Source: a bacterium
GTDB taxonomy: Bacteria > Acidobacteriota > Blastocatellia > HR10
DNA length: 11,555 bases
Reading direction: 5' to 3'
Assembly: GCA_041640655.1 (NCBI GenBank)
Contig: JBEPZV010000068.1
Coordinates: forward strand, 1 to 11,555
The position numbers and the translations under genes were made by a program. How positions within the stretch are numbered: the stretch's first letter is position 1; each line of letters starts with the position of its first letter. The notes under the pieces are model-generated. The model had not been told where the DNA came from. It did no database searches and saw only the letters and a program-made list of their open reading frames with translations. This document shows positions 1 to 11,555 of this stretch, piece after piece.

Positions 1-461
1 CCATCCGCATAATCCCCCGCGATGGCGCGCACGCGCAGTCCCGGATAGTCGCGCACCAGGCCGCGGGCGCTCTCCTCCAACATCTCGCGCGAGATGTCCA
101 CGGGCACATAGAGCAGCGCGCCCTGACGGCGGAGGAGCGCCGCGATGAGCAGACGCGTTTTGGTCGCGCTCCCGCTCCCCAGCTCCACAAGCGTGATCGG
201 ATCGGACATGCGCTCGCCGAAGCCGCGTGCGAGAATCTCCCCGGCATGGGCTTCCAGGATGGCGCGCTCAGCCCGCGTCAGATAGTACTCGGGCAGCGCG
301 CAGATCGCCTCAAACAGGAGCGATCCCTCGCGATCGTAGAAGTACCGACAGGGAAGGTGCTTGGGAGAGGCCGTCAGGCCCTCGCGCACATCGCGAGCGA
401 ATTCCGCCAGGTGGTCATCCGGGGTCGCGCGAATCAACTCGAATCGGTGCTCCTCATCCAT
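1..461 (-). CDS. egtD: L-histidine N-alpha-methyltransferase (hercynine synthase), 3'-truncated by the window edge
   Basis: Not in the ORF track; translated by hand from the ATG at 461: MDEEHRFELIRATPDDHLAEFARDVREGLTASPKHLPCRYFYDREGSLLFEAICALPEYYLTRAERAIL...LVELGSGSATKTRLL...YVPVDIS...AIAGDY. The K-x-LP-xx-YFYD-xx-GS-x-LF, LPEYYLTR-x-E and SAM-binding ELGSGS-xx-KT motifs are typical of EgtD. The start overlaps the senB stop (ATGGATGA). Confidence 0.95.
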   Translation of the reverse strand, partial: MDEEHRFELIRATPDDHLAEFARDVREGLTASPKHLPCRYFYDREGSLLFEAICALPEYYLTRAERAILEAHAGEILARGFGERMSDPITLVELGSGSATKTRLLIAALLRRQGALLYVPVDISREMLEESARGLVRDYPGLRVRAIAGDYAD

Positions 462-1425
462 GGGCGCTCTCCACCGCGCGAAGCTCTTGGAGCAGCGCGC
501 GCCAGCCACGGCGCTCGCGCGCTGGGGAGACGAGCGGTCGCAACCGCCGGATGTGCGCGCGCAACGCCGCGCGAAAATCGCGATCCGTCTCCGCGCGCCA
601 CAGCAGCGCGGCGAGCGCTTCCGTATCTCCGACCGGGAAATAGCCCGGATACTCCGGCCCCAAAATCCCCACCGATCCCGGAATGCGCGTCGCGAGGATC
701 GGCACCGAAGCGGCGAGCGCTTCAGAGAGGACATTCGCTCCCCCCTCCATCCGCGAGGAGAGTACCAACAGACGGCTGCGCGCCAGAAGGCGAAGCGCGC
801 GACCGTGCGGCTGCTCGCCCAGCCACCGATAGCGCGGATTCACCGCCATCTCCGCGCGCGCGGCTTCCGCCCATTCGGCTTCCAACGCCGCTCCGACGTG
901 CGTGATGCGAATGCGCGAGGCCGACGGCAGATACCGCGCCGCCCACGCCGCGCGAAGCGGATCCTTCACCGCGCGAAGATTGGCGATGACGCAGACCTCG
1001 AAGACGCGACGAAGCGGGACGATGCGCCCTCGAGGCCGCTCGGCCGATTGATAGAGGACGCGCGCCTTGGCCCGCAGCGATTCCGAGAGCTCGGCCACCC
1101 CCTCCGGTTGCAACAGGACGATGCGCGTGGCCAATTCCAGCGAACGTTTCACCTCTGGGGATGCGCGCAGGTCCTCATAAAGGTCCGTGCCCGTGAGTGC
1201 GACGATCAGAGGACGCTCCGGATGCGCGCGCCGGAAGCGCTCCACGGCGCCCGCGCTCCGACGCGCGTGCAAAGCGATGAGCAGATCGCACGGCTCGTCG
1301 CGATAATCCTCCCGAATCACCACGCGATGACCGAACGCGCGCAACAAGCGCGCCCACCGACACGCCGTCGTGCGATTGCCCGTCTGTCGAGCCGAAGCCG
1401 CGGGCGTGACCAGACAGATCCTCAT
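454..1425 (-). CDS. senB: Selenosugar synthase SenB-like GT-B glycosyltransferase (TIGR04348-type), ~323 aa
   Basis: Motifs MRICLVTPA...GNRTTACRW, LIALHARRS, LTGTDLY, VLYQS, LRAVKDP, SSRMEGGANVLSEA and YPGYFPVGD match the SenB family as I recall it. The ATG at 1425 overlaps the senA stop (ATGA). The ORF-track start at 1563 lies inside senA and is not credible. Confidence 0.9.
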   Translation of the reverse strand: MRICLVTPAASARQTGNRTTACRWARLLRAFGHRVVIREDYRDEPCDLLIALHARRSAGAVERFRRAHPERPLIVALTGTDLYEDLRASPEVKRSLELATRIVLLQPEGVAELSESLRAKARVLYQSAERPRGRIVPLRRVFEVCVIANLRAVKDPLRAAWAARYLPSASRIRITHVGAALEAEWAEAARAEMAVNPRYRWLGEQPHGRALRLLARSRLLVLSSRMEGGANVLSEALAASVPILATRIPGSVGILGPEYPGYFPVGDTEALAALLWRAETDRDFRAALRAHIRRLRPLVSPARERRGWRALLQELRAVESAHG

Positions 1426-2759
1426 CGCGAGAGGGCGCACGTACGAAAGCCCGCCCAGACGTCGCGCCGATCCGGGCGATAGAAGTTCCGCCACGTGTTG
1501 CGCAAGAGCCGACCGCGCGTGACCCAACATCCCCCACGCAATACCTTGTGATCCCCGAACCACGGTTGCGAGTACTCCTTGTACGGATCAGGGACGAACC
1601 CCGGGTAAGGGAGGAAATCGCTGCTGGTCCACTCCCACACGTTGCCGATCATCTGGCGACACCCGAAAGCGCTCTCGCCCGCCGCCAGCGCGCCCACATC
1701 CACGCATCCCATCGCGCGCCAATCCAGATTCGCTCGCTCCGGCGTCGGCGGCTCATCGCCCCATGGGAATCGTCGCTTTCGCCCGGCCAAGCGTGCCCCC
1801 GAGGCATCCGGCTCGCCCGCGGCGGCGACCTCCCACTCCCATTCGGTCGGCAACCGGCGCCCCGCCCATCGGCAATAGGCCTCGGCCTCGTACCAATTCA
1901 CGTGGATCACCGGACGATGCGGCTCCAGCGGTACCCATTGATCGAAATGGCGGCGCCACCATCGCCCCGGAGCCTCGCGCCGCCAATAGACCGGATGCTC
2001 GGCGCCCACGCGCTCGCGCCATTGCCATCCGGCCTCGCTCCACCACTCCCGCCGACGATACCCCCCATCGTCCACGAAGGCCGCGAACTCGGCTTGTGTG
2101 ACCGGAGCCCGCGCCATGACGAAGGGACGCACCGACACCGGATGCGCCCACTTCTCGTTATCGAAGACGAAGGGCTCATCAGGCGTCGCCCCCAGCCAGA
2201 ACGTCCCCCCCGGAATCTCGACATCCCCGGGAAGCGGCCCCCCTTCGGCGGAGATCGCCGAGGTCTCGACGACGAGAGAGAGCTTCGGCGGCGGATACCC
2301 GAGCGTCTGCCGCGTGTAGGTGATCGCCTCCGTGTGCATGTCCTCGTGAAACACTGAGAGACAGACGAAATAGGCCAGCTCCGGTGTCAGCTCCGATCGC
2401 TCCAATACCTCCAGCACGCGATCGCGCACCTCGCGCATGTAGGTGAGCGTCTGCTCGCGCGAGGGGAGCGGCAGCCGCCACCGCTCATCATGCGGGATGG
2501 CGATGGAGTCCCACAGCGCATCGGCATCGGGGCGAATCGGCTCACGCCCGAGCGCGTGTCGCAACACCCATTTCTCCTGAAACCAGGCGACGTGCCCGAT
2601 CTCCCACAGCAGCGGATTGATGATCGGCAGCAGGGGACCGATCATCTGCTCATCTGTCAGATCCGCGACAAGCTCAAACGTGCACCGGCGCGCATCGCGA
2701 ACCCATTCGCTCAATGTCCGCGCCGAGAAGACCGTCGTGTCCGCTCGAACCATCATCAT
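1422..2759 (-). CDS. senA: Selenoneine synthase SenA (EgtB-like non-heme iron selenoxide synthase; DinB + FGE-sulfatase domains), ~445 aa
   Basis: INPLLWEIGHVAWFQE and the iron-binding H-x3-H-x-E motif (HEDMHTE). FGE-like motifs FDNE, PVIHVNWYEAEAYCRWAGRRLPTEWEWE, GNVWEWT, YKEYSQPWF, VLRGG and RNFY...GFRTC. It is adjacent to senB. The start is one of three tandem ATGs (2759/2756/2753) after GGGGTGAG. Confidence 0.88.
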   Translation of the reverse strand: MMMVRADTTVFSARTLSEWVRDARRCTFELVADLTDEQMIGPLLPIINPLLWEIGHVAWFQEKWVLRHALGREPIRPDADALWDSIAIPHDERWRLPLPSREQTLTYMREVRDRVLEVLERSELTPELAYFVCLSVFHEDMHTEAITYTRQTLGYPPPKLSLVVETSAISAEGGPLPGDVEIPGGTFWLGATPDEPFVFDNEKWAHPVSVRPFVMARAPVTQAEFAAFVDDGGYRRREWWSEAGWQWRERVGAEHPVYWRREAPGRWWRRHFDQWVPLEPHRPVIHVNWYEAEAYCRWAGRRLPTEWEWEVAAAGEPDASGARLAGRKRRFPWGDEPPTPERANLDWRAMGCVDVGALAAGESAFGCRQMIGNVWEWTSSDFLPYPGFVPDPYKEYSQPWFGDHKVLRGGCWVTRGRLLRNTWRNFYRPDRRDVWAGFRTCALSR

Positions 2760-2779
2760 CTCACCCCGCCGCTTCCCCC

Positions 2780-2809
2780 AGTCTATGAGAGCGCGCTTCG
2801 TCCTGTCAA
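2780..2809 (-). promoter_or_regulatory. Putative sigma70-type promoter of the senA-senB-egtD operon
   Basis: Minus strand TTGACA (2809-2804), 18 nt spacer, TAGACT (2785-2780); ends 20 nt upstream of the first senA ATG. Confidence 0.7.
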
Positions 2810-3158
2810 CGCTCATCTGGATCCGCGCCCCGACGCAAAGACGTCCAAGATGACCGAGAGCCAAGGTCTCATTCCGCTGGAGCTGAGGATGACCCGCGAG
2901 CGCGTCATCGGCATGGTCATCACTCCGCACATGAGCGCCAGGGCGATGCGCGCTTCCCCCTTGTGGATGCGGCCCAACGGAAGTGAGCGCGGGACCCTCT
3001 CCCGGAATGTCATGGAGGAGCGCGGGCTCGCACGTCTTGGCTGTCGCCGGATGTCCACAGCAGATGTAGCGCGCGCGCCACAAGGGCCAGGGCGCACGAT
3101 CACACCCTCAGATGGGCAAGACGTGGAATGGCCGAGGGTTATGTCGAGCGCGCCGCTT

Positions 3159-3188: not shown

Positions 3189-4076
3189 ATGCGTTCACTG
3201 CAGCGAACGCTGGCGCGCCCGGTGGAGATCGAGGGGATCGGGCTTCACACCGGCGTGCGTACCCGCTTGAGGCTGTGCCCGGCGCCGGCCTACACGGGGC
3301 TGCTCTTCCGTCGCACCGACCTGGATGGTTTCGAGATCCCGGCATCGCCTCAATACGTGGCTCGCGTCAGCTATGCGACGGCTCTGGTGCGCGCCGGGGT
3401 CATGGTCGCGACGGTCGAGCACCTGCTGGCCGCCCTCTATGCCTGCGGCGTAGATAATGCGATCATCGAGATGAACAACCTGGAGGTCCCCATCCTCGAT
3501 GGCAGCGCGGCCCCCTTCGTCCAGATGCTCGCGCGCGCGGGGCTGCGGACATCGGATGCCCCCCGACATTATGTGCGCGTCCGCAAGCCGATCCAGATTG
3601 GGGATGCGCATCAGCGAATCCTGCTCTCCCCCGATCCGGCTTTCCGCGTGAGCTGTGTGATCGAATTCCCCCACCCCATGATCGGACGGCAACAACGGGA
3701 GCTGGTCGTCACCGAAGAGACGTTCGTCGAAGAGCTGGCTCCGGCGCGCACGTTCGGATTCCTCGAAGACGTGGAGACCCTGCGCCAGAAGGGCTTGATT
3801 CGGGGGGGCTCGCTCCAGAACGCCATCGTCCTGGATCGCGTGGGCCTCCTCAATCCGGAAGGGTTGCGATTCCCCGACGAATTCGTGCGCCACAAGATCG
3901 TGGATCTGATCGGCGACCTCGCGCTCATCGGACATCCGCTCCTCGCGCGCGTGGAGGCGTGGCGCCCCGGCCACGCTCTGAACACAACGGCTGTCGCTGC
4001 TCTCTTGCGCGATCCCGAAGCGTGGGAGCTTGTGGCGCCGTCCTCGACCCGGATGGCCGAACCCGTCACCCCCTAG
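3189..4076 (+). CDS. lpxC: UDP-3-O-acyl-N-acetylglucosamine deacetylase LpxC, ~295 aa
   Basis: QRTL...GIGLHTG, TVEHLLAAL, EVPILDGSA, LAPARTFGF, GGSLQNAIV, LRFPDEFVRHKIVDLIGDL (zinc motif) and GHALN. Homology begins at the ATG at 3189; the ORF-track extension to 2490 is spurious. Confidence 0.97.
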   Translation: MRSLQRTLARPVEIEGIGLHTGVRTRLRLCPAPAYTGLLFRRTDLDGFEIPASPQYVARVSYATALVRAGVMVATVEHLLAALYACGVDNAIIEMNNLEVPILDGSAAPFVQMLARAGLRTSDAPRHYVRVRKPIQIGDAHQRILLSPDPAFRVSCVIEFPHPMIGRQQRELVVTEETFVEELAPARTFGFLEDVETLRQKGLIRGGSLQNAIVLDRVGLLNPEGLRFPDEFVRHKIVDLIGDLALIGHPLLARVEAWRPGHALNTTAVAALLRDPEAWELVAPSSTRMAEPVTP

Positions 4077-4094: not shown

Positions 4095-6188
4095 TCAACT
4101 CAAAAGCGAGCGCACGGTGCGAATCAACTCCTCGATTTGATAGGGCTTTTGCAAGAACCGCACGCCGGGGCGCATCGGAACGCGCGGCCCCAAGTCCTCC
4201 AAGTTATAGCCGCTGCAGAGAACGACCTTCACCTCAGGGTTCAGGTGGATCAATTGCTCATAGCACGCCAGGCCACCCATTCGGGGCATCGTCACATCGA
4301 GGATGACCAGCGCGATCTCCCCTTGCTGCTCTCGATAGATCTCCAGCGCTTCGGCACCGTCCGAGGCCAAGAGCACATCATAGCCATGACGCGCGAGGAT
4401 GAGCGTAGCGACGCGCCGCACGGCTGGCTCATCGTCCACGAGGAGGATCTTCGGGCGAGCGCGCACCGACTCTCCTGAGCGCTCGCCCGCGGGAGCCTCT
4501 GTCGCCGCCGGGAAGTACAGGGCGAACGTCGTTCCCTGCCCCAATCGGCTCTCGACCTCAATGAATCCGCCAGCACCGCGCACGATGCCGTAGACGACCG
4601 CCAATCCCAACCCCGTTCCTTTTCCCACCTCCTTCGTCGTGTAAAACGGATCGAAGATGCGCGGGATGTGCTCTGGCGCTATTCCCACGCCGGTATCGGA
4701 GACCCGCACCACCACATACGCGCCAGCGAGAATCTCGCCCGCCCGCACACGCGGATGATCCGCCGAGAGCACCGCGTGCCCCGTCCGCAGCGTCAACTGT
4801 CCCCCCTCGGGCATCGCATCGCGCGCGTTCACGCAGAGATTCATGAGCGCCTGCTCTAACTGCGCGGGATTGATGCGGACGGGTCGCACATCCGAAGCCA
4901 GCTCCGTCCGAATGTGAATGCTCGCATCGAAGGAGCCGCGAAGCAACCGCGCGAGGCGCTCCACGACCTCGTTCACATCCACCGGGACAGGCGGGGCCGC
5001 CGAAGGGCGACTGAAGAGCAACAGCTGCGACGTCAGCTCAGCCGCTCGCTGTGCCGCCTGCTCGATCGCCTGCACCGATGGGCGCGCCGGATCCTCCGGT
5101 CGCAATTGAGCCAGAAGCAGCGACGCGTAGCCGAGAATCACCGTGAGTAGGTTGTTGAAGTTATGGGCGACCCCCGCGGCCAGCGTGCCCACGCTCTCCA
5201 TCCGCTGCGCCTGCAGCAGTTGCTGCTGCAGCTGACGCCGATCGGTGATGTCAATGAGCAAGCCCTCATAGTAGAGCACCCGCCCTCCGGCGTCGGTCAC
5301 CGCGCGCGCATATTCCTGAACGAAGATGCGCCCTCCATCTTTGCGACGCAGCTCGAATTCGGCTCCGTCCAGCCGCCCGGTGCGCTGCAGGAGCTCCATG
5401 TTCTTGCGGCGCTCGGAGACATCCACGTACAGATCGCGCTCGATGTCCGCGCGCAACAGCTCCTCCACCGACTCGTATCCGAGCATGCGCGCCAGTGCCG
5501 GATTCGCCACGAGGATACGCCCCTCGGGCGTGCTCTGGTAAATCCCCACGACGGCATTCTCGAAGATGCTGCGGTAGCGCTCCTCCAGTTGCCGCGCTTG
5601 CTGATAGAGCTCGGCGTGCCGGAGCGCAAGCCCCACCTGATGGCTGACGGCGCGGACCAGCTCGATCTCCTCCACGCTCCAAACCCGCGTTCGACCCATC
5701 ATCGTGAACCAGAGGACGGCCAAGAAGCGCTCCGCGCGAACGATCGGGGCGTAAAGGACCGAGCGCACGCCCAGAGACCGATACTGCGTCAGGATCGGAC
5801 GGGCCAGTGGATGCGTCTCCACATCGGAGATGGCCAACACCCCCTCGCGCCGTCCGACCTCGACAAGAGGCGCATAATCCGAGAGCCGATACGACGGCTG
5901 AGCCCCGGGAACGCCCGGCTTGCAGTACTCATGGACGGGCTCGACCAGATCCCGCTCCTCCTCGATCCGGGCGAAGACCGCTCGATCCACATCGAGAAAC
6001 CGCGCCAGCTCTTCCAGAGAACACCGCGCGATCTCCGACACATCGAACGATTCGTAGATCTGCGCGATGAGGCGTTGCAGGAGCGCCTCTCGCGCGGCCG
6101 CACGACGCATCTGCGCGTAGATCTCCTCCAGATGAGCGGCGTTCACCAGATGCGTCCGCTCAGAAGGCGATGGAGACTCGCTGGACAT
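4095..6188 (-). CDS. Cytoplasmic hybrid sensor histidine kinase/response regulator (GAF-PAS-HisKA-HATPase-REC), ~697 aa
   Basis: GAF (DVDRAV...SVLYAPI...WSVEEIELVRAVSHQ), PAS/PAC (YRSIFENAVVGIY...ANPAL...RRKDG...DITDR), H-box (AGVAHNFNNLL), N box (NLCVNARDAM), G1/F/G2 (DTGVGI, FDPFYTTK, GTGLGL) and REC (LLVDDE, LDVTMPRMGG, CSGY, LQKPY). The ATG at 6188 has an AGAGG SD-like element upstream. No transmembrane segment is apparent. Confidence 0.93.
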   Translation of the reverse strand: MSSESPSPSERTHLVNAAHLEEIYAQMRRAAAREALLQRLIAQIYESFDVSEIARCSLEELARFLDVDRAVFARIEEERDLVEPVHEYCKPGVPGAQPSYRLSDYAPLVEVGRREGVLAISDVETHPLARPILTQYRSLGVRSVLYAPIVRAERFLAVLWFTMMGRTRVWSVEEIELVRAVSHQVGLALRHAELYQQARQLEERYRSIFENAVVGIYQSTPEGRILVANPALARMLGYESVEELLRADIERDLYVDVSERRKNMELLQRTGRLDGAEFELRRKDGGRIFVQEYARAVTDAGGRVLYYEGLLIDITDRRQLQQQLLQAQRMESVGTLAAGVAHNFNNLLTVILGYASLLLAQLRPEDPARPSVQAIEQAAQRAAELTSQLLLFSRPSAAPPVPVDVNEVVERLARLLRGSFDASIHIRTELASDVRPVRINPAQLEQALMNLCVNARDAMPEGGQLTLRTGHAVLSADHPRVRAGEILAGAYVVVRVSDTGVGIAPEHIPRIFDPFYTTKEVGKGTGLGLAVVYGIVRGAGGFIEVESRLGQGTTFALYFPAATEAPAGERSGESVRARPKILLVDDEPAVRRVATLILARHGYDVLLASDGAEALEIYREQQGEIALVILDVTMPRMGGLACYEQLIHLNPEVKVVLCSGYNLEDLGPRVPMRPGVRFLQKPYQIEELIRTVRSLLS

Positions 6189-6248
6189 CTGTTCCTCTTC
6201 TCTCACACGCCGCAAAGCTCGGCACAGGTCATCTCCGGAAACCAACAA

Positions 6249-6420: not shown

Positions 6421-8157
6421 ATGCTCGGCGAACTCTTTCGGCGTAAGACTGTAGACGCGATCCTCATCGAGAGCGAGAAGCCCGAATATCGGCTCAAGCG
6501 GGCGCTCACGGCCTGGGACCTGACGGCACTGGGCATCGGAGCCATCATCGGCGCGGGGATCTTCGCTCTGACGGGTACAGCGGCTGCGGGCACCGTGGAT
6601 CCGACGACCGGAGAAGTCCTGCGCCCCGGAGCCGGCCCCGGGCTGATTCTCTCGTTCGTGCTGACGGCGATCGCCTGTGGCTTCTGCGCCCTCTGCTACG
6701 CGGAATTCGCATCGCTGATCCCCATCTCCGGCAGTGCGTACACCTACGCGTATGCGACGCTCGGCGAACTGATCGCGTGGATCATCGGATGGGACCTGAT
6801 CCTCGAATACGCGGTCGGCAATATCGCCGTGGCCGTGAGCTGGTCGGGTTATTTCATCGAACTCCTGCGCGGACTCGGTCTGGAGATCCCGCCCGAATGG
6901 CGATGGCTCACGGTGAGCTACAACGTCGGCGTTCACACGCCGGAGATCCTCGCCCATGCGCCCCGCGTGTTCGGCCTCCCGATCATCATCAACCTCCCGG
7001 CCTTCGGCATCGTGGCCGTGCTCACCATCTTGCTCGTCATCGGCGTCAAAGAGAGCGCGCGCTTCAACGCGCTGATGGTCATCGTGAAGCTGCTCGTGCT
7101 GTTCTTCTTCATCGCGATCGGATTCCTCTACGTGAAGCCGGAGAACTGGCAGCCCTTCGCGCCCAATGGGTGGAAGGGCATTATGACGGGCGCGGCGCTC
7201 GTCTTCTTCGCCTACATCGGCTTCGACGCCATCTCCACGACGGCCGAGGAGACGCGCAACCCTCAACGCGATCTCCCCTTGGGGATGATCGGCTCGCTCG
7301 TCATCTGCACCATCCTCTACGTGGTCACGGCCGCCGTGCTCACGGGACTGGTCCACTATTCGGAGCTGAACGTCCCGGAGCCGCTGGCGCTCGCCCTGCG
7401 CCTCCTCGATTTGAATTGGGCGGTGGGGATCGTCGCCTTCGGCGCCGTGGTGGCGACGACGTCGGTGTTGCTCGTCTTCCAGATGGGGCAGCCGCGCATC
7501 TTCTTCTCCATGGCGCGCGATGGGTTGCTGCCAGCGCGATTCGCCGAAGTGCATCCGCGCTTCAAGACGCCGCATGTGACGACGATCCTGACGGGCGTCG
7601 CCGTCGCCGTCTCCGCCGCCTTCGTGGACATCGGCGAGGCCGCGGAGCTGACCAACATCGGCACGCTCTTCGCCTTCATCCTCGTGTGCGCGGGTGTGAT
7701 CGTCCTGCGCCACACGGACCCACAGCGGCCGCGTCCGTTCCGCACGCCGTTGGTCCCTGTCGTCCCCCTCCTCGGCATCGCCAGTTGCTTCTACCTCATG
7801 CTCAGCCTGCCACGACTCACCTGGATCCGCTTCGGCGTGTGGCTGGCCCTGGGGCTCCTCATCTACGTCTTCTACGGCGTCACCCACAGCCGATGGATTC
7901 GCGAGCAGACGCCGCGGCGTCCCCTTCAGATCGCGGGCTTGGGCGCCGCCCTCATGATCCTGGCTCTCGTGAGCCTCGCCGCAAGTCATCACTACCAGGA
8001 GCTGATGGCAAAGGTCTCGTCCGACCACTCGAGCACGCTGCTCGCTTACGCCGAACATATGTACCGCCTGACGCGCCTGGGGACCTTCGGGGGATTGAGC
8101 CTCGGGGCCCTGCTTCTGGCCTTCGGTCTCTGGAGCGGACGACGACGGCGAACGTGA
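6421..8157 (+). CDS. APC-superfamily amino acid permease (cationic amino acid transporter-like), 578 aa
   Basis: GIGAIIGAGIF, AGPGLILSF, LCYAEFAS-xx-PISGSAYTY, IGWDLILEY, FFAYIGFDAIST-x-AEE-xx-NPQRD, QPRIFFSMARDGLLP, NIGTLFAF and RPFRTP; many hydrophobic helices; GAGG just upstream. Confidence 0.93.
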   Translation: MLGELFRRKTVDAILIESEKPEYRLKRALTAWDLTALGIGAIIGAGIFALTGTAAAGTVDPTTGEVLRPGAGPGLILSFVLTAIACGFCALCYAEFASLIPISGSAYTYAYATLGELIAWIIGWDLILEYAVGNIAVAVSWSGYFIELLRGLGLEIPPEWRWLTVSYNVGVHTPEILAHAPRVFGLPIIINLPAFGIVAVLTILLVIGVKESARFNALMVIVKLLVLFFFIAIGFLYVKPENWQPFAPNGWKGIMTGAALVFFAYIGFDAISTTAEETRNPQRDLPLGMIGSLVICTILYVVTAAVLTGLVHYSELNVPEPLALALRLLDLNWAVGIVAFGAVVATTSVLLVFQMGQPRIFFSMARDGLLPARFAEVHPRFKTPHVTTILTGVAVAVSAAFVDIGEAAELTNIGTLFAFILVCAGVIVLRHTDPQRPRPFRTPLVPVVPLLGIASCFYLMLSLPRLTWIRFGVWLALGLLIYVFYGVTHSRWIREQTPRRPLQIAGLGAALMILALVSLAASHHYQELMAKVSSDHSSTLLAYAEHMYRLTRLGTFGGLSLGALLLAFGLWSGRRRRT

Positions 8158-8168
8158 TCTCGCCGTCC

Positions 8169-8879
8169 TCATCCGCTCTTCTGCGGATAGGGACAGAGGG
8201 CGTTGAGGACGCACTGTCCGCACAGCGGTCGGCGCGCCCGACACGTCTGGCGACCGTGAGCGATCAACCGATGGCTGAACGCGATCCACTCCTCCTGTGG
8301 GATGAGCGCCATGAGGTCGCGCTCGACCTTGTCCCGATCTGTGTGCCGTGTCAGGCCGAGGCGTTGGGCGACGCGCAAGACGTGCGTATCCACGACGATG
8401 CCCGAGGCGATCCCGAACGCATTCTGCAACACGACATTGGCCGTCTTCCGCGCCACGCCGGGGAGCGTCAGCAGCGCCTCCATCGTCGTGGGCACAGCAC
8501 CGCCGAAATCGGTCGCGATCTTGCGACACGCGGCTTTGATCGCCCGCGCTTTGTTCCGGTAGTAGCCTGTCGGCCGGATCAGGCGCTCCAGCTCACGCAA
8601 GGGCGCCGAAGCATAATCCTCCGCCGTGCGGTACTTCCGAAACAACTCCGCCGTGACCTGATTCACTCGCTCATCGGTGCACTGCGCTGAGAGGATCGTC
8701 GCCACCAGAAGCTCCAGGGGATTACTGAAATTCAGCGCCGTTCGAGCCACGGGGTATGCCTCTCGAAGCCGCGCCAGGATCTCCCGAACGCGCGCTTGCT
8801 CCTCGGGCGAAGGCGCGCGCGCCTCCGCGAGCGTCGCTTCCGCCGACCGTCTTCCCCTCGGACGATGCGCGTCCCTCAT
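8169..8879 (-). CDS. nth: Endonuclease III (DNA glycosylase/AP lyase), ~236 aa
   Basis: LLVATILSAQCTDERVN, HhH motif LPGVARKTANVV, VVDTHV and the [4Fe-4S] motif C-x6-C-x2-C-x5-C (CRARRPLCGQCVLNALC). The ATG at 8879 overlaps the upstream stop (ATGA) and has GGAGG upstream. Confidence 0.96.
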   Translation of the reverse strand: MRDAHRPRGRRSAEATLAEARAPSPEEQARVREILARLREAYPVARTALNFSNPLELLVATILSAQCTDERVNQVTAELFRKYRTAEDYASAPLRELERLIRPTGYYRNKARAIKAACRKIATDFGGAVPTTMEALLTLPGVARKTANVVLQNAFGIASGIVVDTHVLRVAQRLGLTRHTDRDKVERDLMALIPQEEWIAFSHRLIAHGRQTCRARRPLCGQCVLNALCPYPQKSG

Positions 8880-9529
8880 CCTCCCTCCCCTCGACTCTCC
8901 GCGTGCACGGCGTCGAAGAACATCGCCTCGTATTCCAAGGCGAGCCGAGCCGTGCGACGAATCGCCTCCCATGCCCCCTCCGCCGCGTATTTTCGGATCA
9001 GCGTCACCTCGCGCGCCGGATCAAGCGGCGGGAGCGCGAAGCACTGAACCTCGGACTCCGTGAACCCATAGTGCGCGCGAAAGCCGGCATGCAGCGCGCG
9101 ACAGACCTCGCTCCAGACCTCCTCGATGAACAAGAACGCCGCCAGATTCTCGGCCGGCGTGCCGCTGACGGCCACGTGAACGAGGAAATTCGGCGCGGCG
9201 AGCACCCCCGGCAAGGGCTCAGCACGCATGGCCACCTCCGGCTCCAGGCCGAGCGCTCGCAAGAAGTGCTGATACTGCGCCAGGTAGCCCACCTCGCGAT
9301 GCGCCATCTCGATGAAGAACGCCTTCCCCTCGCGATCCGGCATCTGCAGCACGCTGAGCGCGAAGTAGTCGTAAATGTGGAGCGTGTAGTGATATTCCTG
9401 CTCGGCCAGAATCCTCAACCGCTCTCGGGGAAGCCGCCCCTCCGCGATCTCCCGCACAAGCGGATGATGCGCGATGCGCTCGAAGAGCGGTTCCACGGCC
9501 CGCCGCAGATCCTCAAGCTCATCCCGCAT
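8876..9529 (-). CDS. TenA/THI-4/PqqC family (heme-oxygenase-like fold) protein, non-Cys variant, ~217 aa
   Basis: N-terminal HHPLVREIAEGRLPRERL...QEYHY and C-terminal ALEYEAMFFD resemble the TenA patterns HPF...G-x-L...QDY-x-Y and E-xx-FWD. The ATG at 9529 is preferred because the alternative TTG at 9568 is part of the TTGACA -35 box. Confidence 0.78.
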   Translation of the reverse strand: MRDELEDLRRAVEPLFERIAHHPLVREIAEGRLPRERLRILAEQEYHYTLHIYDYFALSVLQMPDREGKAFFIEMAHREVGYLAQYQHFLRALGLEPEVAMRAEPLPGVLAAPNFLVHVAVSGTPAENLAAFLFIEEVWSEVCRALHAGFRAHYGFTESEVQCFALPPLDPAREVTLIRKYAAEGAWEAIRRTARLALEYEAMFFDAVHAESRGEGG

Positions 9530-9538
9530 AGCGGCATT

Positions 9539-9568
9539 AAAGTAGTTGCGCCCCCGATTTTGTGTCAA
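9539..9568 (-). promoter_or_regulatory. Putative sigma70-type promoter of the TenA-like/nth operon
   Basis: Minus strand TTGACA (9568-9563), 18 nt spacer, TACTTT (9544-9539), 9 nt before the ATG. Confidence 0.62.
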
Positions 9569-9587: not shown

Positions 9588-9710
9588 GATCGGTGATCTT
9601 ATGGAAGGGGAGACGGTCAATCAAGGCGAGTCGAGAACACAGCCCAACGTCACTCCTCACCCATCCCCTTTCCGCGTGTCACGGCGAGACTCTCCCGGGA
9701 GGACGTGGCG

Positions 9711-10445
9711 GTGAATCCAGAGTTAGCGAAATTGATCGCCTTACAAGAACTGGACTTGAAGATTCGGGCCCTGGAAGAAGAGATCGCCATCGTACCGACG
9801 AAGAGGGCTGAGCTGGAGCGACAGTTTGAGGAGTTCGCGGCCGCGTACCTGGAGAAGAAGTCGCGCCTGGAAGACTCCAGGCGTCAACATCGGCAATTGG
9901 AGATGGACCTGCAGGACGCGCAGCTGCGCTTGGAGAAATATAAGAACGACCTCATGCGCGTGCGGAATCAGACGGAATACGCGGCGGCGTTGCGCGAGAT
10001 TGACATGGCCAAGAAGCTCATCAGCGCGCTGGAGACGCAGATTCTGGAGCTGCTGGAGACGATCGAGACGCTCGAACGAGAGGTTCGGGAACAGACGCCG
10101 GAGATCGAAGCCAAGCGCCAGCATGTGGACGCGTTGCTGGCCGAATACGCGACGGCCGTCGAGCGACTGACCGAGGAGTTGCATCGCATGCGAGAAGAAC
10201 GGGAGCGCCTGGCCAGGACGATTCGCCCGGATTTGCTCCAGCGGTACCTGCGCCTGGTTGAATTGCGCGATGGGATCGCCCTGGCGGAAGTGCGCGATGG
10301 CTCCTGCACGGCATGCTATATGACTGTTCGCCCACAGGTCTACGCCGACGTGCGCAAAGGCGAAGAGATCCTGACGTGCGATCATTGCAGTCGCATTCTC
10401 TACTACCGCGGGGCATCGGTCGAAGGCTCAGAATCAGCGGCCTGA
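9711..10445 (+). CDS. Coiled-coil protein with C-terminal C4-type zinc ribbon (DUF164 / HP0958-CT398-like), ~244 aa
   Basis: L-xx-LQELD N-terminus, long heptad E/L/R-rich helix, EY-x-A-xx-REID, and CTAC...CDHCSRILY. The GTG at 9711 lies 8 nt after GGAGG (9698-9702); the GTG at 9705 is only 2 nt away from it. Confidence 0.9.
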
Positions 10446-10596: not shown

Positions 10597-11555
10597 ATGC
10601 CATCCGGTACGATCTTTCGCCGCGTCATTCTCATAGTGCTGGATAGCGTCGGGATCGGCGAGATGCCCGATGCGGATCGGTATGGGGACCAAGGCAGCGA
10701 TACGCTCGGACATCTCTTCGCCCATCGCCCGCTTCATGTCCCCAACTTGCGCCGCTACGGGATCGCGAATATCAAGCCCGTCGCCCTGCCGCCGGTGGCT
10801 GCTCCCGAGGGGGCGTTCGGACGCGCAGCTATCGCCTCGGCGGGCAAAGATACGACGACCGGCCATTGGGAGATCGCCGGGATCATCACAGAGACGCCCT
10901 TCCCCACGTATCCGAACGGGTTCCCCCCCGACATCATCGAAGCCTTTGAGCGAGCGATCGGACGGCGCGTGCTCGGCAACAAGCCCGCTTCGGGGACGGA
11001 GATCATCCAGGAGCTCGGCGAAGAGCATCTGCGGACGGGATGCCCGATCGTCTACACGTCAGCCGACAGCGTCTTTCAAATCGCGGCCCATGAGGAGGTC
11101 ATCCCCCGCGAAGAGCTGTACCGAATGTGCGAGATCGCGCGACGTCTGCTCGATGGGCCGCACCGCGTCGGGCGCGTCATCGCGCGACCGTTCGTCGGCA
11201 CACCGGGGAATTTCCGACGCACGGAGGGGCGGCGGGATTACGCCGTTGATCCCCCCTCACCCACGTTGCTCGATCTCCTGAAGGCGTCCGGATGGGAGAC
11301 GGTCGCCGTCGGGAAGACAGGTTCCATCTTCAATCACCGCGGGTTCACCCGCGAGATCCCGGCGGGGAATAATATGGCCTCGATCGAAGGCACGCTTCAC
11401 GCGATGCGTGAGACCGAGACCGGTGTGATCTTCGTCAACCTCGTGGACTTCGACACGCTCTACGGTCACCGCAACGATGTCGAAGGCTATGCGCGCGCTC
11501 TCGAAGCCTTCGATGCGCGCTTGCCGGAGATCGAAGCGCGACTGCGCCCGGACGA
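10597..11555 (+). CDS. deoB: Phosphopentomutase, 3'-truncated by the window edge
   Basis: Not in the ORF track; translated by hand: [39 protein letters not shown]...[15 protein letters not shown]...[11 protein letters not shown]...[16 protein letters not shown]...[10 protein letters not shown]...[23 protein letters not shown] at 10585-10589. Confidence 0.96.

Follow-up and report, generated by a model that had tools for sequence, protein, structure and literature searches.

The 11,555-nucleotide stretch analysed here (the window; bases 1-11555 of contig C68, from an acidobacterial genome assembly of 3.13 Mb in 128 contigs, 89.8% complete) very probably carries a three-gene operon, senA-senB-egtD, for the synthesis of selenoneine. 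The chemistry is established for the Variovorax paradoxus enzymes and, judged by sequence likeness, would apply to the copies found here. The pathway was described in 2022, and neither the two enzyme families nor their NCBIfam names are new; the operon extends the pathway to a lineage for which we found no paper, with no new chemistry indicated. The features are as follows.

1422..2759, minus strand: senA, putative selenoneine synthase (non-heme iron selenoxide synthase), 445 aa; NF041186, motif and alignment to 8K5I/8RYZ
454..1425, minus strand: senB, putative selenosugar synthase (GT-B Se-glycosyltransferase), 323 aa; TIGR04348 and SenB PDB matches
1..461, minus strand: 5' part of egtD, putative histidine N-alpha-trimethyltransferase, 153 aa to the window start; TIGR03438
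2780..2809, minus strand: predicted sigma70-like promoter, TTGACA-18-TAGACT; promoter scan, 10/12 matches
1422..1425, minus strand: overlap of senA stop and senB start (ATGA), 4 bases; forward strand tcat
454..461, minus strand: overlap of senB stop and egtD start (ATGGATGA), 8 bases; forward strand tcatccat

Three Overlapping Genes behind a Predicted Promoter

The sequence-only reading had described three co-oriented genes, two stop/start overlaps and one promoter, and a re-check of the open reading frames and individual bases found all of them at these positions. The start of senA is ambiguous, with three consecutive ATGs (2759, 2756, and 2753) of which relatives keep different ones. A promoter scan of the window returned 4 sites against 1.4 +/- 1.1 in shuffled sequence, weak evidence taken alone. 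The TTGACA (-35) box is invariant in all five aligned sequences (the window and four relatives) and the -10 box is identical in four of them; moreover, a deletion of upstream DNA in one relative (locus L042) ends exactly at the TTGACA box. An Rfam search of the window gave no matches.

We infer that senA, senB, and egtD are co-transcribed and, from the overlaps of 4 and 8 bases, that their translation would be coupled. The 4-base senA/senB overlap is common and not obligatory, being present in 21 of the 51 cases where senA and senB adjoin in the same orientation in related loci (L041-L120). An RNA run of a close relative contained 0.22 of the words, and its contigs, most of them 95-99% alike, take in some of each of the three genes and bridge both junctions (247-694 and 1163-1686). 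As evidence of expression these contigs are weak: strand and a single transcript are not resolved, and DNA was possibly present in the library.

The Oxidase Is of the SenA Type

The window oxidase scored 532.4 bits with the NCBIfam SenA model NF041186 (cut-off 420), which is 170 bits above its score with the EgtB model TIGR03440. EgtB-II proteins from the same class showed the reverse pattern, with 488 bits for EgtB and 363 for SenA. NHISS enzymes have been classed by a composite motif, given for SenA as xNEH--HRHxHYYN(F/Y)(F/Y)R (PMC11030361). All 14 residue positions of the window protein (NEHHRHMHYYNFYR; N48, E53, H56, H90, R93, H138, M141, H142, Y393, Y396, N425, F426, Y427, and R431) fit this motif, the first free position and two gap positions being unscored, and the motif residues align with those of V. 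paradoxus SenA (8K5I/8RYZ). Residues N63, E68, H71, R120, H167, H171, Y363, N395, and R401 of that enzyme, as described for its structures (8K5I/8K5J/8K5K, 8RYZ; PMC11237966), are identical in the window protein, and its F397 corresponds to Y427, a difference that the published motif permits. The motif differs from those of EgtB-I (SDH..RR..NWD) and OvsA (MQA). H90 and Y427 replace the thiol-binding Arg87 and Asp416 of type I EgtB, and NEH with M141 stands against SHH..RR..Q in type II; His and Tyr at the Arg87/Asp416 positions are given as a mark of all SenA proteins in the Kayrouz preprint (10.1101/2022.04.13.486033).

In a FastTree phylogeny of 75 motif-labelled rows, from which near-duplicates and rows with non-standard motifs had been excluded, the window protein nests among the SenA-motif rows, and EgtB-I and EgtB-II each stand apart (support 99 and 100). 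The sole OvsA row, which has a long branch, lies outside the subclade of the window protein and close to the SenA group's base. The ranking of PDB chains was OvsA-YNF (8UX5, 363 bits), OvsA (353), EgtB from M. thermoresistibile (298), and V. paradoxus SenA (261). This ranking hinted that window SenA might be sister to OvsA, a placement that the tree does not support, the OvsA row being far from the window protein there. The low score of V. paradoxus SenA arises partly because it lacks a segment of ~55 residues that the window protein keeps (residues ~318-371); the window protein, for its part, is without the short N-domain insertion of V. paradoxus SenA. OvsA-YNF is OvsA engineered at three positions to the SenA motif, and its reported product is selenoneine (PMC11030361); these three residues occur naturally in window SenA. 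By its residues, the window oxidase appears to be a SenA-type enzyme longer than that of V. paradoxus and, in effect, a natural version of OvsA-YNF.

Profile cut-offs, residue motif, alignment to solved structures, and the tree, in which the protein falls outside both EgtB groups and OvoA is not represented, thus favor SenA over EgtB and OvsA and selenoneine over ovoselenol, as the sequence-only reading had proposed. Its expectation that automatic annotation would miss these genes did not hold: NCBIfam release 20 names them "selenoneine synthase SenA" and "selenosugar synthase SenB," and the generic names (FGE-sulfatase, Glycos_transf_1) come from Pfam only.

SenB and EgtD

The glycosyltransferase is assigned to SenB by TIGR04348, with a score of 411.8 bits (cut-off 300) and retention of K158, N20, T23, E231, and the selenophosphate-pocket residues (V. 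paradoxus numbering). Its four PDB matches at E<=1e-5 are all SenB chains. N17, T20, H53, T78, T80, and D81 of the window protein correspond to V. paradoxus N20, T23, H58, T83, T85, and D86; Q126, R151, K154, E227, and E235 correspond to Q131, R155, K158, E231, and E239; and H207, corresponding to H211, is also conserved. K158, N20, T23, E231, E239, H58, T83, T85, and R155, all conserved here, are among the residues reported as probed by mutagenesis in SenB (PMC10891094, PMC11237966). In contrast to SenB of V. paradoxus and Ramlibacter sp. (8FBX, 8JJN, 8JJQ, 8K5U; PMC10891094), the window protein has EGGANV rather than EGGAHV, T at R22, and A at T214. EGGAHV is the motif as described for beta-proteobacterial SenB, where H235 contributes a main-chain amide, and N at this position is the state in all 68 aligned relatives. 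Given the changes at R22 and H235, the donor preference of window SenB may differ from that of the V. paradoxus enzyme.

The egtD gene is truncated by the contig end only. Its remainder lies on contig C93, whose 127-bp overlap with C68 is exact; the joined frame encodes 333 aa with no internal stop, and the join is spanned, at 100% identity along 3686 bp, by an independent metagenome contig (L166). The two pieces scored 147.9 and 259.2 bits with TIGR03438 (EgtD), and a 98%-identical whole gene (L167) scored 373.7 against a cut-off of 290.9. Among PDB chains, the C93 piece matches EgtD best (E 1e-49). Counterparts of M252 and E282, which we take to be the Met and Glu of the EgtD histidine pocket, are kept in the alignment of window EgtD to mycobacterial EgtD. 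The best-matching structures are those of the mycobacterial enzyme (4UY5-7, 4PIM, 7SCF); the window gene is linked to sen genes, not to egtABCE.

Proposed Pathway and Selenium Supply

The proposed route follows the steps given in the Kayrouz preprint (10.1101/2022.04.13.486033): selenophosphate from SelD, a 1-selenosugar from SenB, hercynine from EgtD, and SenA coupling at C2. In the window organism, EgtD would trimethylate histidine to hercynine using S-adenosylmethionine, and SenB would combine selenophosphate with a UDP-sugar, probably UDP-N-acetylglucosamine, to give the 1-selenosugar. SenA, an Fe(II)/O2 enzyme with a predicted three-histidine site, would then join hercynine, at its C2, to the selenosugar, and the resulting selenoxide would eliminate spontaneously to selenoneine, so that no EgtC or EgtE step would be needed. 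The selenophosphate would come from the cell's single SelD, shared with selenocysteine synthesis.

Neither the window nor C93, on which the rest of egtD is followed by a convergent serC, contains senC or selD, and the locus is not a three-gene senABC cassette in the sense of selD/senC within ~5 kb of senA and senB. The only SelD of the genome (C2:48263-49189; L001:1471-2532) scored 365 bits and carries a TGA in frame at codon 21, with a hairpin after it; it is probably itself a selenoprotein. The genome also has selA, selB, and tRNA-Sec; selU was not found in the assembly. From this we infer that the role of SenC falls to the housekeeping SelD. The sequence-only reading of a selenoneine route with its own hercynine supply stood as to the identities of senA, senB, and egtD, but the operon is not self-sufficient, having no senC, and the only SelD is encoded on another contig. 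A search of 41 genomes of relatives gave exactly one selD match in each, most with one TGA.

No second full-length NHISS protein (EgtB), egtC, or egtE scored over cut-off in the assembly, and the genome's only egtD is the one flanked by senB and serC. Among five checked relatives that hold the operon, SenA is the sole full-length NHISS match in every one. Most likely, egtD sits inside the operon because there is no ergothioneine cluster from which to borrow hercynine. The known senA-senB-senC clusters of V. paradoxus and Amycolatopsis palatopharyngis, as published, are alike in SenA/SenB families, catalytic residues, and predicted product, but the window operon lacks senC, has the order senA-senB-egtD, and is accompanied by a SelD with an in-frame TGA. 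Moreover, both characterised producers also have an egt cluster; in the window organism's assembly, by contrast, we found no EgtB. As an apparent producer of selenoneine without ergothioneine, the organism could help to address whether selenoneine acts in its own right.

Distribution in Relatives

The closest named loci belong to Bacterium HR10 (98%), Bacterium HR08 (93%), and an Acidobacteria metagenome-assembled genome (MAG; 80%), which places the lineage most likely in the Acidobacteriota. SenA scored over cut-off in 10 and senB in 12 of the 41 relatives, and senB occurs in 33 of 401 genomes of the phylum. We surveyed the 80 closest senA loci (L041-L120), counting neighbor genes within the DNA available for each. 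The exact SenA motif is present in 70 and deviates in 10; senB accompanies 62, egtD 29, and selD 10. No linked selD was seen in 52 of the 62 senB-bearing loci, and of the 46 loci flanked on each side by 5 kb or more, 5 have selD. The tandem order senA-senB-egtD was found in 8 of the 80, in Acidobacteriota, a Bacillota MAG, and a Myxococcales MAG.

The sequence-only reading had suggested that both the occurrence in this lineage and the gene order might be undescribed. Our literature search found no paper joining selenoneine and Acidobacteria, in keeping with the first suggestion, but linked egtD is already in print: the Kayrouz preprint (10.1101/2022.04.13.486033) reports it in a small fraction of the sen clusters. 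Its supplementary example clusters, which were outside the search, may show this gene order. The same preprint reports all three sen genes within 5 kb for 827 of 2,353 senB sequences.

Within the genus, the operon lies between serC and lpxC in four of seven genomes, the window genome included. In genomes G001 and G004, serC adjoins the lpxC region with the operon absent, and decayed remnants of senA and egtD persist at the serC-eutN-lpxC site in G003 (L192, 593-976) and G007 (L195, 3-724). Because of these operon-free sites and decayed remnants, the operon looks ancestral at the serC-lpxC site and repeatedly lost.

Two further arrangements were seen among relatives. In ten loci, mostly of Methylomirabilota (L052-L054, L060, L072, L077, L078, L082, L085, and L086), senA adjoins egtD with no senB in the DNA examined; in two of these (L060, L072) the hercynine pocket has T/Y where N/F would stand. 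A gene with the EgtB-II motif (SHHRRHQHFYNFFE) and F where SenA has its catalytic Tyr lies ~0.1-2 kb from selD in eight genomes of the class (L121 and L123-L129, in G022, G020, G030, G036, G017, G014, G013, and G033). These genes form their own subgroup in the tree, and sen genes stand alongside in three of the eight; a selenium link is possible.

In-Frame TGA Codons in senB of Relatives

After 18 duplicate loci had been dropped, 11 of 117 distinct senB matches carried one in-frame TGA in an otherwise intact gene (L065, L073, L083, L091, L093, L121 in G022, L122 in G039, L136 in G046, L139 in G163, L170, and L179), and one further match carried a TAA. The comparison genes had an in-frame TGA in 1 of 135 senA/EgtB-like and 0 of 58 egtD matches (Fisher p 1.3e-4 for the senB excess, overstated as kin are not independent). 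On window SenB numbering, the TGA codons fall at positions 4 (twice), 5, 67, 130 (twice), 145 (twice), 171 (twice), and 220. Window SenB, whose own gene has no TGA, has Cys at positions 4 and 145. Of 70 relatives, 61 have Cys at 145 and 53 have Arg at 171, where a CGA-to-TGA nonsense change is also plausible. It is possible that these codons specify selenocysteine or a selenium-sensing read-through. At three sites, hairpins resembling selenocysteine insertion sequences 3' of the senB TGA folded no better than shuffles (z -1.0 to -1.7); neither did the SelD positive control (z -1.0), and the comparison thus carries no weight either way. Our literature search found no paper describing an in-frame TGA in, or a selenoprotein form of, SenB.

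We tentatively consider, at somewhat less than an even chance, that the lineage makes selenoneine only: hercynine would serve solely for selenoneine, and SelD would need selenocysteine. With selenophosphate coming from a selenocysteine-requiring SelD, the pathway would be gated by selenium supply, and in scattered relatives, though not in the window genome, the senB TGA would add a second gate, one that would have arisen several times at differing positions and would make SenB a selenoprotein or a selenium-sensing switch.

Alternative Readings

Several observations weigh against a selenoneine operon. The oxidase barely passes the EgtB cut-off (362.6 bits against 360 with TIGR03440); wild-type OvsA and EgtB outscore V. 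paradoxus SenA among its structural matches; the tree has FastTree support only, with a single row for OvsA and none for OvoA or a characterised SenA; SenB departs from the V. paradoxus enzyme at R22 (T) and H235 (N); and in an assembly 89.8% complete an EgtB could be unassembled. That narrow pass would suit a canonical EgtB making ergothioneine with EgtD, the glycosyltransferase being a bystander, as would the report of egtD as the commonest neighbor of NHISS genes (69.9%; PMC13674229). We regard such an EgtB as highly improbable, given the far higher SenA score, the His/Tyr pair in place of Arg87/Asp416, the position outside both EgtB groups of the tree, and the opposite scoring of true EgtB-II proteins of the same class. 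An OvsA making 5-selenohistidine and ovoselenol would account for the best wild-type PDB match, and OvsA (8U41/8U42; YNF mutant 8UX5; PMC11030361), the top whole-length scorer among solved structures, shares the selenosugar-binding half (NEH, HR). However, the hercynine-binding residues of the window protein are Y396, N425, and F426 where OvsA has M, Q, and A, the three residues reported to switch OvsA to SenA activity, and egtD is linked here, whereas most ovs organisms are described as lacking egtD (both PMC11030361). No ovothiol-type methyltransferase was found over cut-off in the genome (TIGR04345, a proxy for OvsM: best 25.5 against 170 bits), and there is very little chance that the enzyme is an OvsA.

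The same three enzymes might instead use another sugar donor, or both sulfur and selenium, and yield ergothioneine via a thiosugar, an idea that arises because the organism lacks EgtB, none having been found in its assembly. It would fit the departures of SenB from V. paradoxus at R22 and H235, the segment kept by the window's SenA subgroup (known here from sequence alone) and absent from V. paradoxus SenA, and the ten of 80 relatives off the strict SenA motif. The window protein itself has the strict motif, no egtE over cut-off is available to cleave a sulfoxide, and the Kayrouz preprint reports that SenC with sulfide gave no product and that SenA with thioglucose stopped at the sulfoxide without forming ergothioneine; we consider this variant chemistry unlikely, if less remote than the other alternatives. 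An operon intact in sequence but silent or being lost would match the failure to find it in three of seven genus genomes and in the family's one other genome, and the remains of decayed senA or egtD that G003 and G007 keep at this site. Three intact frames with every motif residue and a conserved promoter make this very improbable for the window genome, and the RNA-run contigs covering parts of all three genes in a close relative argue weakly the same way, DNA being possibly in that library. A functional selenoneine operon is the reading that we prefer.

Neighboring Genes

The remaining genes of the window are unrelated to the sen genes.

3192-4076: lpxC
4095-6248: GAF-PAS hybrid histidine kinase
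6421-8157: APC amino-acid permease
8169-8972: endonuclease III
8876-9568: TenA-like protein
9705-10445: zinc-ribbon coiled-coil protein
10597-11553: phosphopentomutase

Between senA and lpxC, positions 2889-2995 (plus strand) hold what is left of a decayed eutN/ccmL microcompartment vertex gene. It was seen by DNA and tblastn comparison (70% DNA identity over 116 bases, E 3e-11); the decayed frame gave no BLASTP alignment to intact EutN and no Pfam match, and no intact eutN copy was found in the window genome's assembly. The gene is intact at the serC-lpxC site in G001, G003, G006, and G007. One lpxC match among the relatives (L193; G004:C3:109846-110697) has a single TAA inside, probably at the end of the match.

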